Position numbers and translations under genes: made by a program
In this document: positions 2,851 to 6,706 of the stretch, in pieces
Layout of the letters: every line of letters begins with the position of its first letter
Position numbering within the stretch: position 1 is the stretch's first letter
Virus record (IMG/VR): IMGVR_UViG_2703718785_000025
Length of the DNA: 10,444 bases
Strand: one strand, 5' to 3'
From: a virus
Lineage: Duplodnaviria; Heunggongvirae; Uroviricota; Caudoviricetes
The notes under the pieces: model-generated
What the model saw: only the letters and a program-made list of their open reading frames with translations
The model's database searches: none
Told to the model about the DNA's origin: nothing

Positions 2851-3547
2851 TGATTTTTCCTGTTGAATTTTCAGTGTGCTGTTGATTGGCTCTGGCGCGG
2901 GCGAGATCAACAACAGACGTGTATTTTCCGGTTTCCTTGCGTTCACCTTCGCGACGTTTTTTCCAGATGCGCATCTCTGCCTGAATTTCGGGCCATTTGG
3001 CACCTGGCTTACATTTATGCTTAACCCACCCGATGGCATGCAGCTTAAGCTCCGGATACATGGCGTTAACTTCTGGCATTTTCATCAACGCTTCAACGAT
3101 ATGTCCGTCGAATGTTGCCATGTCTTCCTGCAACAGTTCCTGCGCGCTAATCACCATATCAACGGTGATGTTTTCACATGTGTCGAACTTAACCATGACA
3201 GCGTTCTGTACTTCAGGGGCCAGCTTGTCAAAAGTGACGTTTATCGGATCTGATTCAGTCTCAACCGGGACAAAGGAAGCAGACTCCTCATCCCAGCGGT
3301 TTTCCTGCATATATTCAGCATCCCAGGAATCGAGGGCAGGGCGGGGAATACCGGGTTTATCCTCGCAAACAAGAAATTTATAAGCGCAGTCCTGAGCAGC
3401 CGGATAATGTTCCAGGAATTGCCAGTGAAATTTTGCGCGGGCGCGACGTTCATCACCGGCTTCAATGGCAGTGGCTACAGCGACTGCACCTTCTTCCTTT
3501 ATTGCCTGTTCGTCCGGAATGGCGGCGCAAATAAAGACTTTACTCAT
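2851..3547 (-). CDS. Prophage exonuclease, N-terminal portion (probably the same gene as 1308..2749; proteins of this kind are often annotated exodeoxyribonuclease VIII-like)
   Basis: ATG at 3545..3547 with GAGGT about 8 nt upstream. 232 codons (MSKVFICAAIPDEQ...NSTGKI) are open to the gap edge. The apparent frame shift on the far side of the gap is expected if the gap length is arbitrary. Confidence 0.7.
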
Positions 3548-3641
3548 TTTGTTTTACCTCATTACAGATTTCAGGGTGAACGAATCCCTGCCATTGCTGG
3601 CATTTTTAATCCGTTGGTATGGTGTTAATATGGCTGGAGGG

Positions 3642-3809
3642 TTATCCAGCCGGTGTTTCGTTATTCAGGTACAGCGATACTTTTTTTACCGGGAGGCATT
3701 CACCAGAAATTTTTTGCTCGTCTCTTGCCTGGAGGCAGGATTCTTTACTGGCATAAATTCCGGTAATCACATTCTGTGATTCACCCGTTATAAGAAAAAC
3801 CGTCATCAT
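3642..3809 (-). CDS. Hypothetical small protein (55 aa)
   Basis: Hand translation of the minus strand gives MMTVFLITGESQNVITGIYASKESCLQARDEQKISGECLPVKKVSLYLNNETPAG. It sits 17 nt downstream of the 3827..4015 gene in operon-like spacing. No Shine-Dalgarno seen, and it is below the ORF-track length cutoff. Confidence 0.25.
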   Translation of the reverse strand: MMTVFLITGESQNVITGIYASKESCLQARDEQKISGECLPVKKVSLYLNNETPAG

Positions 3810-3826
3810 CAGTGCAAATGCTGAAG

Positions 3827-4015
3827 TTATTGACGTTCTCCGAAAATACCAAGTTCAAGAAGAGCAATTCGGGAAAGTATGGAATTATCATTGAGCAGAT
3901 AAGGCTCATATTTCCTCATATTAATGGCATCTTCAGTAAACTCCCGGTTACTGAGCAGAACACCAATATCAAAACAACCTTCAGACGTATTAACGTTTGG
4001 TAATAACGTTTCCAT
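3827..4015 (-). CDS. Hypothetical small protein (62 aa)
   Basis: Internal ATG at 4013..4015 of the 97-aa track ORF, with GAGGA 7 nt upstream. Product METLLPNVNTSEGCFDIGVLL...GIFGERQ. No family recognised. Confidence 0.45.
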   Translation of the reverse strand: METLLPNVNTSEGCFDIGVLLSNREFTEDAINMRKYEPYLLNDNSILSRIALLELGIFGERQ

Positions 4016-4032
4016 TATCGCGTCCTCAACAA

Positions 4033-4180
4033 TGAATTTTGTGATGCGGTGCCTGGTGCCTCCAGGTGACGTTAACCAGTTAACAATTAACGCCGGATAC
4101 AGAGAATCCACCCATAACACTGTTTTTGGTTTTAACTGTTCCGCGTGCGCTGAGCCGCATTCACCGCATCACAAAATTCA
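4033..4180. repeat. Perfect 19-bp inverted repeat flanking 110 bp
   Basis: TGAATTTTGTGATGCGGTG at 4033..4051 and its exact reverse complement CACCGCATCACAAAATTCA at 4162..4180. The left arm lies just upstream of the RBS of the 3827..4015 gene. The enclosed segment contains GTTAACCAGTTAAC (4071..4084). Confidence 0.7.
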
Positions 4181-4583
4181 CTTTAAAAAGGGCGGCAGAG
4201 CAGCCACGGAGTAAAACTGATACCGCCAAACGTCACCAGAAAATTGATAACAGAGGGCGTTGCAGCGGGGTTGTCACTTAAGCGTATGGTCAACCTGACA
4301 ACCCGGTGTCCTCAACTGGGGAAGGAATAACCCCGCCATACTTACCGCCGCGCCATTTCGCGGATTGCCACAACCGGAAGCGCACGGTCGACGAAAATTT
4401 AACGACAGGCTATCTATGAACCAGCTACCTCGCCGTGCGCTTTCGCGTTATGGTCTGACTTTTCAGGGAAATATCCTTTCAGTAAACTGTCAGTGCCGGA
4501 TGCTCACCCGTGTCCGGCGCACGCACTCCACCTCACCCGTGGAGAACTCCTTAATTACCAACCTTAGCTTCGTTGGTTAGCTA

Positions 4584-4802
4584 TTAACGCGGGTATGTAA
4601 TCATTCTGGCAATGCTTAATGCCGCTGCTTTTTCCAGATTGGTGATATCCTGCTCCAGAGCGGACAGATTTTCAGCCTGCTTAGCCCTGGCTTCATTGGC
4701 CCATTTCAGGTCCTGCGCTGCCTTAATTTTCTGGTGCATCCACTCATAAAGTTCATCATCGGTATAGTCTGGCGCGATGATGACGGGTTCTCGTTTCTGC
4801 AT
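4584..4802 (-). CDS. Hypothetical small protein (72 aa)
   Basis: ATG at 4800..4802 preceded by a strong AAGGAG 5 nt upstream. Product MQKREPVIIAPDYTDDELYEWMHQKIKAAQDLKWANEARAKQAENLSALEQDITNLEKAAA... No family recognised. Confidence 0.55.
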   Translation of the reverse strand: MQKREPVIIAPDYTDDELYEWMHQKIKAAQDLKWANEARAKQAENLSALEQDITNLEKAAALSIARMITYPR

Positions 4803-4894
4803 GTCGGCTCCTTGTGGTTAGCGCTGCCTGCTTTTAACCACGTCAGGCGAGGTGGTATCCTCTGAGGGGTCTGTTACTCGAGAGGAAATTGGTT

Positions 4895-5095
4895 ATGAAT
4901 ACAATCAAGTTTTCTTGCCCAGAATGTGGTGGCGAAGTCTTTGACACATCCTTTAAACCGCATGGCTCTGACAGTTTCGCGGGAGCCATCTGCAAAAATT
5001 GTGGTCACCTTGTAACTGAAGATGAGTCCTCGCAGTTTGATGACGAAATCGTTGACAATATCTTCGGTGCACTCACCAGAGACTTTCTGAAGTAA
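4895..5095 (+). CDS. Small zinc-ribbon protein (66 aa), CPEC...CKNC
   Basis: ATG at 4895 with GAGG in AGAGGAAA 7 to 8 nt upstream; the track start at 4889 is TTG. Two CxxC pairs (CPECGG and CKNCGH) spaced 21 residues apart, with an acidic C-terminal tail. Confidence 0.5.
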   Translation: MNTIKFSCPECGGEVFDTSFKPHGSDSFAGAICKNCGHLVTEDESSQFDDEIVDNIFGALTRDFLK

Positions 5096-5473
5096 AGGCG
5101 CATACCGCTTAGTTACCGCTCTGATAATTCTTACCTGTCCGGCAATGGCGCTGATATCAATATAAAGCGCCATCGCTGTTTCTTTGCTGATCCCTGGATG
5201 CCTTCCATTCTGATGTTTGACTTCGCCCACTGAGAAATCCTCTGTTTCCCCTTAACGCCGGGGTAGCGGAACAAAAAACCTGCTGCATAGTTAAACGTAA
5301 TCCCCGCCGTCATGTTCATACGCCTCAGGCTGGCTACTTAACCCCTGACCACTGCCGGGTAACTCGAAGTATTGCCCTGCGTTCTGTGGGGCGGGGTGGG
5401 TTTATGGATACAATTTACAAATTAAAATTTAACTGGTCAACATGTTTATTATTAAATTTGTAATTGCGGGCTG

Positions 5474-5502
5474 TTGCATCAGTCCCAAAATGGGACTACT
5501 AT
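5474..5502 (+). promoter_or_regulatory. Putative higBA promoter with operator-like inverted repeat
   Basis: -35-like TTGCAT (5474..5479), 17-bp spacer, -10-like TACTAT (5497..5502). The spacer holds a 7-bp inverted repeat AGTCCCA-aaa-TGGGACT (5481..5497). The predicted transcript start is within a few nt of the higB ATG at 5509 (little or no leader, no SD seen). Confidence 0.4.
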
Positions 5503-5508
5503 ACAGTT

Positions 5509-5811
5509 ATGAAGATTATCTCAGTTAAAACACTCAGGGATTTTTGGGCGGAGAATCCTGATGCAGAACAACCGCTAAGGGCATGGGTGGATGAGGCGGC
5601 AAAAGCTGACTGGAAAAGCCCAGCAGACATTAAGGCACAATACCGAACGGCCAGTATATTGAAAAACCGGCGCGTGGTATTCAACATAAAAGGTAATCAT
5701 TACCGTTTAATTGTTGCAATTGCGTATCAGCGAGGATGGGTATTTGTTAAATTCATCGGAAACCACAAGGAATACGATGCTATTGATGCTGATACCATCG
5801 AACTGGAGTAA
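5509..5811 (+). CDS. higB: Type II toxin, HigB family (RelE/ParE superfamily)
   Basis: 100-aa product MKIISVKTLRDFWAENP...FNIKGNHYRLIVAIAY...GNHKEYDAID, resembling E. coli HigB as recalled from memory. Toxin is upstream of antitoxin, the reversed order typical of HigBA. The track start at 5464 adds 15 residues with no support. Confidence 0.85.
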   Translation: MKIISVKTLRDFWAENPDAEQPLRAWVDEAAKADWKSPADIKAQYRTASILKNRRVVFNIKGNHYRLIVAIAYQRGWVFVKFIGNHKEYDAIDADTIELE

Positions 5812-5813
5812 GC

Positions 5814-6173
5814 ATGAACATCAAACCTATTCGTACAGAGCAAGATTATGAAGCCGCGTTGCGTGCTGTTGAACCCATGTTCGACAATGAGCCCGAAATT
5901 GACACGCCTGAGGGGGATTTTTTTGAGGTGATGTGTTTGCTAATAGAGGAATATGAAAAAAAACATTATCCCATTGAGCCACCATCCCCAATTGAAGCTA
6001 TAAGATTTCGCATGGAACAGCAGGGGCTGACTGTGAAAGATTTGGAACCCGCAATTGGGAAAAAAAATCGGGTTTATGAGGTGTTGAATGGTACCAGAAG
6101 CCTTACGTTACCAATGATTCGCCGTCTTCATAATCAATTTGGTATCCCCCTGGAAAGCCTGGTTGGATTATAA
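5814..6173 (+). CDS. higA: Type II antitoxin, HigA family (XRE-type HTH at the C-terminus)
   Basis: 119 aa; ATG is 2 nt after the higB stop with GGAG 5 nt upstream. C-terminal HTH region LTVKDLEPAIGKKNRVYEVLNGTRSLTLPMIRRLHNQFGIP resembles HigA. Confidence 0.85.
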   Translation: MNIKPIRTEQDYEAALRAVEPMFDNEPEIDTPEGDFFEVMCLLIEEYEKKHYPIEPPSPIEAIRFRMEQQGLTVKDLEPAIGKKNRVYEVLNGTRSLTLPMIRRLHNQFGIPLESLVGL

Positions 6174-6189
6174 AATCTGCTAGTCATTT

Positions 6190-6238
6190 GCCTGATGCTC
6201 GTTCCAGAAAAGGAATGCATCAGGCAGTTTTGTTTTTC
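6190..6238 (+). terminator. Putative rho-independent terminator after higA
   Basis: Stem GCCTGATGC (6190..6198) pairs with GCATCAGGC (6217..6225), followed by GTTTTGTTTTT. The stem overlaps the stop codon of the convergent repressor gene. Confidence 0.5.
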
Positions 6239-6612
6239 TGCCGCAGTAACTCTTCAAGTTTCCGTTTATAGAAATCGCGTTTTTGCTCCATATCACGAAT
6301 GATCTGCTCTGCGTCGCTTTGAGGTAACTCATCTAAAAGCGATATGATTTTTCGTTGTTGTTCTGTAAGTTGCGGTTGGTTGTCATTACTGGATACAGCC
6401 ATTTTATCGCCGAGAGTTTCTTCTTCCATAAAGAACCAATGGACGGGATGTTGTGAGAGCTCTGCTAATTTTTCCAGTTTATCCATTCTTGGCATCACGC
6501 CTTTCAACCAACCTTGCACGGATTGGGGTTTTACACCAAGACGTCTTCCCAGCTCTGACTGGTTTATATTCAATTCCTGCAACACCTGCTGAAGGCGTTT
6601 TACAAAGATCAT
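6220..6612 (-). CDS. Prophage repressor, HTH XRE/cI-type, RacR-like, with no S24 peptidase domain
   Basis: ATG at 6610..6612 with GAGGGG upstream; the track start at 6618 is GTG. 130 aa: MIFVKRLQQVLQELNINQSELGRRLGVKPQSVQGWLKG..., with a C-terminal charged, coiled-coil-like tail. Divergent from the Cro-like gene. Confidence 0.8.
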   Translation of the reverse strand: MIFVKRLQQVLQELNINQSELGRRLGVKPQSVQGWLKGVMPRMDKLEKLAELSQHPVHWFFMEEETLGDKMAVSSNDNQPQLTEQQRKIISLLDELPQSDAEQIIRDMEQKRDFYKRKLEELLRQKNKTA

Positions 6613-6667
6613 CACCACCCCTCGTAAACTAGTTCCGCGATCCTACAGAAAAAATTGATAAGTGGCA

Positions 6668-6706
6668 TTACAAATAGAAGTTGAAATTTAAATTTAAATT
6701 TGTAAT
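6668..6706. promoter_or_regulatory. Operator-like inverted repeat in the divergent repressor/Cro-like promoter region
   Basis: ATTACAAAT (6668..6676) and ATTTGTAAT (6698..6706) form a perfect 9-bp inverted repeat 21 bp apart. Three tandem AAATTT units lie between them (6685..6702). Rightward -35-like TTGAAA at 6681..6686 and -10-like AATTAT at 6704..6709. Confidence 0.5.

Follow-up and report, generated by a model that had tools for sequence, protein, structure and literature searches.

A HigB/HigA-type toxin-antitoxin operon beside the repressor gene of a lambda-like prophage of Escherichia coli: gene content, predicted control and probable role

The higBA genes and their products

We analyzed the surroundings of the repressor gene in a stretch of viral DNA (Caudoviricetes; IMG/VR record IMGVR_UViG_2703718785_000025), the whole of which, 10,444 nucleotides (nt), is referred to here as the window. 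The window belongs to a lambda-like prophage, and its positions 5300-6700 are identical to prophage DNA of Escherichia coli O26:H11 str. 11368 and of many other enterohemorrhagic strains. Next to the repressor gene lie two genes, higB and higA, which probably form an autoregulated toxin-antitoxin (TA) operon of the type known from HigB/HigA of E. coli K-12. From left to right, the two genes, their predicted control elements and the repressor gene are as follows (+ or -, strand; aa, amino acids):

5474-5479, +: candidate -35 (TTGCAT) of the higBA promoter, read from the sequence, with 3 of 6 consensus positions
5482-5496, both strands: perfect palindrome GTCCCAaaaTGGGAC, which almost fills the promoter spacer; putative HigA operator
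5497-5502, +: candidate -10 (TACTAT) of the higBA promoter, read from the sequence, separated from the -35 by a 17-nt spacer and with the ATG 6 nt on
5509-5811, +: higB, toxin gene of the HigB family (RelE/ParE superfamily), 100 aa, no Shine-Dalgarno motif
5814-6173, +: higA, antitoxin gene, 119 aa; the product has a helical domain at its N terminus and an Xre-type helix-turn-helix (HTH) at its C terminus
6188-6239, +: predicted intrinsic terminator for higBA, made up of a bulged hairpin (6188-6227) followed by the U-run UUUUGUUUUUCU (6228-6239)
6220-6612, -: DicA-like repressor gene, cI analogue, 130 aa, convergent on higBA; RefSeq coding sequence WP_000578360

A preliminary description of this DNA had named the pair a toxin-first HigB/HigA-type module convergent on the repressor gene, and this is how the genes lie: higB precedes higA on the same strand with a gap of 2 nt, and the repressor gene runs toward them from the opposite side. 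The profile searches called for at the time placed both proteins inside the proposed families. HigB matched Pfam HigB_toxin (PF09907) over profile positions 1-74 of 74 with 113.7 bits (cut-off, 27), and its residues 1-93 aligned with HigB structures of E. coli K-12 and a close relative (PDB 5IFG, 5YCL and 6KML; E = 3e-7, 34 bits). The RefSeq entry for this protein, WP_000692026, bears the name "type II toxin-antitoxin system HigB family toxin." For HigA, residues 63-115 matched Pfam HTH_3 (27.1 bits; cut-off, 23), residues 6-112 aligned with residues 24-132 of K-12 HigA in the PDB (E = 3e-9, 40 bits), and some RefSeq records call the product "HigA family antitoxin." Among the PADLOC profiles, HigB matched PD-Lambda-2_A over its full length (136 bits), and HigA matched PD-Lambda-2_B with 144 bits, a score that covers only profile positions 1-119 of 402.

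As a comparative set, we used 80 homologous loci from Enterobacteriaceae, Betaproteobacteria, Pasteurellaceae, Chloroflexota, Bacteroidota, Cyanobacteria and other groups. A short higA follows higB in nearly all of them, across many phyla. The window HigB keeps R55, N59, K61, G62, N63, Y65, R66, H86, Y89 and D90, each of which is conserved in at least 90% of the 80 aligned HigB sequences. Among copies of the whole immunity region that have diverged by 3 to 7%, most changes were synonymous, and the ratio of nonsynonymous to synonymous change (pN/pS) was 0 to 0.11 for higB and 0.02 to 0.06 for higA, values that indicate strong purifying selection on both genes.

Both reading frames were intact in 24 of the 25 copies checked. 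The sole exception, an IMG/VR contig, has a 1-nt deletion in the run of eight A residues of higA (equivalent to window positions 5953-5960), which cuts the antitoxin to 62 aa and leaves higB intact; the cause is a sequencing error in the homopolymer or else a naturally occurring frameshift of the antitoxin. A TTG start for higB at 5464, which would place the promoter and the palindrome inside the gene, was rejected because the RefSeq protein and the alignment of the 80 homologues both begin at M5509.

Predicted promoter, operator palindrome and terminator

The preliminary description had also predicted a promoter of its own for the pair, an operator-like inverted repeat, a near-leaderless higB mRNA and a terminator. 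The promoter, the inverted repeat and the terminator are all present as sequence features. If transcription started 7 nt past the candidate -10, it would begin at A5509, that is, at the A of the higB ATG. The palindrome GTCCCAaaaTGGGAC is present at a single place in the window, and a search of 19.4 kb of the identical prophage likewise gave a single occurrence. By itself, such a match is within chance expectation (at least one in 45 of 200 shuffles, with 2 mismatches allowed), and it is because of its position, not of its mere presence, that the palindrome counts. A palindrome of the form T-N-CC, 4 to 6 nt, GG-N-A, sought at most 60 nt upstream of higB, was present in 73 of the 80 homologous loci, compared with 2.3% (34 of 1493) of the control 60-mers taken from these loci.

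The arrangement around the palindrome is shared as well. Throughout Proteobacteria and Chloroflexota, it lies between a TTG-type -35 and a -10 of the form TAnnAT or TATAAT that ends ca. 6 nt before the ATG, and in the proteobacterial homologues a TTGnnn stands as far from the palindrome as the candidate -35 does in the window. A TAnnnT hexamer ends 4 to 9 nt before the start of higB in 48 of 74 homologues, versus 7.8% of random ATGs. A Shine-Dalgarno-like motif was found before higB in only 6 of 74 loci, versus 41 of 78 before higA; the window higA has a putative ribosome-binding site, GGAG, at 5805-5808, 5 nt before its ATG. This comparative layout supports the prediction of a leaderless higB mRNA. 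In an alignment of six diverged variants of the immunity region, both arms of the palindrome were conserved, as were the TAnnAT hexamer and its distance from the ATG, and variation was found in the three central bases of the palindrome and in its flanks.

The classes of operator half-site track HigA residues 83-88, which lie within the HTH:

GTCCCA: K-x-N-R-V-Y
GCTCCC: S/T-R-A-R-V
GTTACC: S-K-E-R-V-S
TTCCC: L/F-K-S-R

This covariation would fit a direct reading of the operator by HigA. We regard GTCCCAaaaTGGGAC as the probable HigA operator and autoregulation by HigA as probable.

At the other end of the unit, the hairpin at 6188-6227 has a folding energy of -23.5 kcal/mol (z = -2.9). The right arm of its stem takes in the repressor stop codon (TCA on the + strand, 6220-6222), an overlap already pointed out in the preliminary description. 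The predicted terminator as a whole covers this stop codon and the eight sense codons that precede it in the repressor gene on the opposite strand, with the U-run antisense to the Lys-rich C-terminal codons. On the minus strand, the same hairpin folds with no U-run after it, so the element is predicted to be a one-way terminator, for higBA. Transcripts of the repressor gene may run on as antisense RNA across higA. The terminator is kept in the immunity variants, including one A-to-G change that preserves a G-U pair. Downstream of higA in the enterobacterial non-phage homologues it is absent; the sequence there is unrelated and in some cases holds terminators of its own.

Distribution and prophage setting

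In a set of 5,426 complete genomes of E. coli, higBA was present in 148 (149 places), as was the segment comprising the repressor gene and the right operator (OR) region (148 genomes, 149 places), and the two were contiguous in 148 of 148. The picture in IMG/VR was the same, where the 23 contigs with a close HigB were the same 23 that carry the repressor. Among the copies of this repressor gene in the 5,426 E. coli genomes and in IMG/VR, there was no version of the immunity region without higBA, and the INPHARED phage collection contained no close copy of the immunity region. The flanking genes differ among strains; in strain A34, the genes of the leftward promoter (PL) operon and those for replication are different ones. 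The A34 variant of the module also has a Phd/YefM-RelE pair in its leftward operon (locus positions 3676-4238). The G+C content is 42 to 43% in higBA, 40 to 45% in the repressor and cro-like region and 46 to 50% in the flanks. There is no break in base composition around higBA; instead, it is the whole immunity region that differs from its flanks. Judging from these patterns, higBA behaves as a fixed part of one lambdoid immunity module of the DicA type that moves as a block.

Outside E. coli, the nearest relatives were found in Lelliottia, Kosakonia, Leclercia, Enterobacter, Trabulsiella and Silvania, with 84 to 91% protein identity. They have the same 119-aa HigA and no copy of the window repressor nearby. 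DNA homology to the non-phage relatives spans 5481-6166 only; hence the candidate -35 and the predicted terminator, both outside this block, are features of the prophage site and did not arrive together with the genes. In six of the seven nearest non-phage relatives, a second palindrome lies ca. 30 bp before the first; the window has none at this place. The pair came from outside the phage and looks like an autonomous unit, and to this extent the term "moron" used in the preliminary description is apt. It does not apply as regards sporadic presence, given the complete linkage to the repressor, or a distinct G+C content.

To the left and right of the segment formed by higBA and the repressor gene lie the control regions of the prophage itself:

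5404-5466, both strands: region resembling a left operator and promoter (OL/PL), outside the TA unit, with two inverted copies of the 18-mer TTACAAATWNAANTTNAA at 5415-5432 (+) and 5446-5463 (-)
5440-5412, -: leftward promoter-like site reported by the scanner (9/12), with -35 TTGACC at 5440-5435, a 17-nt spacer and -10 TAAATT at 5417-5412
6667-6706, both strands: OR-like region, flanked by the repressor and cro-like genes, with TTACAAATWNAANTTNAA copies at 6668-6685 (+) and 6688-6705 (-)

The 18-mer has four matches against 0.10 expected, and they are confined to 5404-5466 and the cI/cro intergenic region. The leftward promoter-like site is flanked by the two OL/PL copies, the scanner reported promoter-like sites on both strands in the OR-like region, and the OL/PL motifs are kept in diverged variants of the immunity region. 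We infer that 5404-5466 is the OL/PL of the prophage and would be bound by its repressor. The interval 5400-6240, originally assigned to the TA module, thus holds for the TA unit itself and not for 5404-5466. The higBA promoter is 10 bp away from one OL operator copy. The position of the pair between OL/PL and the repressor gene is the one that rexAB has in lambda, as the preliminary description had noted.

The repressor matched Pfam HTH_3 and the DicA subfamily model of NCBIfam, the latter with 50.1 bits, which is below the cut-off. Its PHROG matches are transcriptional regulators and repressors, and it is 33 to 40% identical to proteins annotated as CI in Salmonella and E. coli phages. A Pfam search found no S24 peptidase (self-cleavage) domain in it, unlike in the cI of phage H-19B, and so induction of the prophage probably does not take place through RecA-stimulated self-cleavage of the repressor.

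The gene order in the window is integrase and exonuclease; dicB, the DicF RNA and ydfC; the leftward early promoter region; higB and higA; the DicA-like repressor; and then cro-like (YdaS family), cII-like (YdaT family) and replication genes. The cII-like product matches phrog_163, "CII-like transcriptional activator." The gene of the DicF antisense small RNA lies at 4190-4241 (-) in the leftward operon, between ydfC and dicB (Rfam RF00039, 75 bits, full length); it was the sole match in an Rfam scan of the whole window, which gave none in 5400-6240. A run of 101 N (masked or unresolved positions) at 2750-2850 lies inside the exonuclease gene, whose reading frame is split in the list of open reading frames (ORFs). 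Family support was found for each of two ORFs that overlap on opposite strands: 4889-5095 (+) corresponds to the RefSeq "ECs_2282 family putative zinc-binding protein," and 4874-5230 (-; 99 aa if the ATG at 5173 is used) matches phrog_21318 over the full profile with 222.6 bits. In the O26:H11 11368 prophage, a second TA pair, a RelE/ParE toxin with a ParD antitoxin, is found ca. 8 kb further right, outside the window (17436-17998 of that locus).

Just downstream (leftward) of the PL-like promoter, a noncoding segment of ca. 100 nt (5302-5400) has a much wider distribution than the remainder of the region. With 5300-6700 as the query, 3,034 E. coli records were matched, probably most of them through this segment, since only 148 match the other parts of the query. 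The segment also matches several E. coli phages at 92 to 97% identity, where it is unannotated. This segment may be a leader or an antitermination element of the PL operon. On the minus strand, the widely conserved 5290-5410 gave no sign of a structured RNA, with a fold no better than that of shuffled sequences (z = -0.27).

Probable role of the operon and comparison with known systems

We read higBA as a functional type II TA operon of the E. coli K-12 HigB/HigA type, autoregulated and with phage exclusion as its most likely role (probability of ca. 0.8). According to its family, HigB would be a ribosome-dependent mRNA endonuclease, which HigA would bind and neutralize; HigA would also repress the operon through the palindrome in the spacer of its own promoter. 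Transcription would probably start at or beside the A of the higB ATG, with the toxin translated from a leaderless message devoid of a Shine-Dalgarno motif and higA from its normal GGAG site. The antitoxin would thereby be kept in excess despite the toxin-first order. The transcript would end at the hairpin with its U-run, in the stretch shared with the 3' end of the repressor gene. Homology and the conserved cis elements give good support to this molecular mechanism, with a toxin, an antitoxin that doubles as repressor and an operator within the promoter spacer. As for the role, which is less certain, abortive-infection-type exclusion of other phages by the lysogen appears most likely, and we favor it because of the location and of two relatives with proven defense activity, HigBAC and PD-Lambda-2.

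Several points weigh against this reading. The pair is without the phage-sensing parts of those two relatives (the chaperone-addiction [ChAD] tail, the SecB-like chaperone, the peptidase domain and the third gene), and defense is therefore not simply transferable to it from HigBAC or PD-Lambda-2. The higBA promoter candidate is weak (7 of 12 consensus positions), and a generic scan of the window for promoters and terminators listed neither the higBA promoter nor the higBA terminator; the latter was probably missed owing to the internal bulge in its stem. The covariation between operator and HTH follows clades and hence is not independent of phylogeny. Regarding annotation, an NCBIfam search gave no model matching HigB or HigA, and no equivalog-level name from that source; a literature search found no paper citing the protein accessions of the pair.

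The alternative that survives best is that higBA is mainly an addiction module. Cells losing the immunity region would be killed or arrested by the longer-lived HigB, so that the repressor region, and often a defective prophage, would be kept in the chromosome. Retention is a serious alternative because no phage sensor is recognizable in the pair and because the linkage with the repressor type is complete, in E. coli genomes and viral contigs alike. In addition, the block of higBA and repressor is found in different prophage backbones, the integrase of the O26:H11 11368 prophage is annotated as frameshifted while the module is intact, and plasmid TA pairs are classically known for post-segregational killing. 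However, a single acquisition in a young immunity type would explain the complete linkage equally well, chromosomal prophages are seldom lost by segregation, and proven defense systems occupy the same locus in other lambdoid phages. As the main function of the pair, we consider addiction possible but rather unlikely. As a side effect, retention of the immunity module is likely, and exclusion and retention are compatible, not exclusive.

That the prophage has rewired the TA unit to report the state of its immunity switch seems improbable to us. The lysogenic repressor could co-regulate higBA from OL, since the TTACAAATWNAANTTNAA copy at 5446-5463 occupies the place of the second HigA palindrome of the relatives and homology to these stops at 5481. 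Such a link between repressor and OL, or one through antisense RNA, would tie the release of the toxin to the loss of the repressor, be it by induction, superinfection or deletion of the immunity region, and, if true, would provide a plain two-gene TA system with a sensor-less trigger.

It is very unlikely that HigA acts mainly in the regulation of the phage (as another repressor or as an anti-repressor of the immunity switch), with HigB inactive or accessory. HigA is indeed an Xre-type HTH protein encoded within the immunity region, and the higBA promoter is close to an OL operator copy. However, no further HigA palindromes were found at phage promoters in the window or in the 19.4 kb of prophage, where they were sought as a sign of cross-regulation; the conserved residues of HigB are intact and its gene is under purifying selection; and the same pair exists without any phage in other genera.

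Finally, we rejected a reading that hardly deserves credence, namely that higBA is a decayed remnant of PD-Lambda-2 or HigBAC that has lost the C-terminal domain of the antitoxin and the third gene (as might be suggested by the partial PD-Lambda-2_B match, by HigA ending about where the 218-aa HigA of the H-19B type enters its tail and by the mere 46 nt from the higA stop to the repressor stop), because a short HigA of 116 to 144 aa is typical of the homologous loci with a complete higA (a 401-aa form is found in one locus only), and because the 119-aa HigA of the enterobacterial relatives is not encoded in a phage, purifying selection on both genes is strong and the 46 nt contain no ORF or leftover coding sequence.

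With a TA operon involved in exclusion as the preferred reading, the main value of these results lies in annotation and in the choice of experiments, and they hold no surprise for specialists. Positions 5474-6239 are a clean 0.7-kb unit with which one can ask whether a plain HigBA, without chaperone or peptidase sensors, is able to protect lysogens of enterohemorrhagic E. coli (O26, O103, O111, O45) from other phages or merely retains the immunity region. If true, the combination of a leaderless toxin message without a Shine-Dalgarno motif, a normal ribosome-binding site for higA and a spacer filled by the operator would be a family-wide rule for keeping antitoxin in excess in toxin-first operons.

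The pair is an uncharacterized member of a well-known family, with a toxin already named in RefSeq, and the locus next to the repressor is already recognized as a home of defense and TA systems. Like the window pair, HigB/HigA of E. coli K-12 (YgjN/YgjM; 5IFG, 6KML) has a PF09907 toxin, a two-domain antitoxin and the toxin-first order, and the palindromes of the K-12 higBA promoter share the general form T-N-CC, 5 nt, GG-N-A with the window operator. However, the similarity is distant (34 and 40 bits), and the K-12 genes are chromosomal and not part of a prophage. The candidate -10 of K-12, together with a second palindrome, also lies further upstream, implying a leader of ca. 35 nt instead of a leaderless message (read from the sequence). 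The K-12 HigB cleaves translated mRNA, and HigA represses the higBA promoter (Christensen-Dalsgaard et al. 2010, PMC2814082). In PMC11980606, toxins of the PF09907 family are classed as ribosome-dependent and mRNA-degrading, with toxin-first (T/A) order. Growth inhibition through ribosome-dependent mRNA cleavage, with neutralization by the partner, has been shown only for the HigB proteins of K-12 (PMC2814082) and of HigBAC (bioRxiv 10.1101/2024.02.24.581848).

A relative with 43% identity to HigB is found in the immunity regions of phage H-19B, of many Stx1a phages and of Stx2a_WGPS9. In this H-19B-type module, HigB follows cI in the same orientation, and then come a 218-aa HigA and a SecB-like protein (PD-T4-9_C, 41.6 bits). 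The window HigA is 43% identical to the 218-aa protein over 112 residues, aligning with its residues 9-120 and ending there. The GenBank record of H-19B (AF034975.3) leaves the interval between cI and N (3501-4842) unannotated, although it encodes a HigBAC-type module; a near-identical module is annotated in Stx2a_WGPS9. There is an annotation gap here, which extends to PHROGs, where the HigB family (phrog_5734) is listed with "unknown function."

From its architecture, we infer that the H-19B-type module is the published HigBAC system of NT1F31. HigBAC is an anti-lambda defense system located "downstream of the cI repressor," at the RexAB locus of lambdoid prophages; it protects against lambda-vir upon recognition of the tail protein gpV by the chaperone, and the ChAD extension of its antitoxin comprises residues 122-218 (Mets et al. 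2024, bioRxiv 10.1101/2024.02.24.581848). The window pair resembles this type in its place between the repressor gene and PL/N and in the type of palindrome upstream. They differ in that HigBAC has a 218-aa HigA with the ChAD tail, a SecB-like chaperone, the orientation of cI and a leader, whereas the window pair lacks both tail and chaperone, runs toward the repressor gene and appears to be leaderless. Membership in HigBAC was rejected for lack of the ChAD tail and of the SecB-like chaperone gene in the window. In PD-Lambda-2, the B protein is fused to a peptidase, and a third gene is required for defense (Vassallo et al. 2022, PMC9519451). Despite the strong PADLOC matches of both proteins, the window pair has a HigA of only 119 aa, in which a Pfam search found no peptidase domain, and no third gene; membership in PD-Lambda-2 was rejected on the absence of these two parts from the window.

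More generally, higBA is comparable to rexAB of lambda and to BstA as an accessory unit of the immunity region, presumably with expression in the lysogen, that adjoins the repressor gene. BstA was reportedly presented as a repressor-adjacent defense gene by Owen et al. in 2021. There is no sequence relationship between these systems and higBA, for which Pfam gives only HigB_toxin in HigB and HTH_3 in HigA. Finally, rexAB is cotranscribed with cI, whereas higBA has a putative promoter of its own and runs toward the repressor gene.

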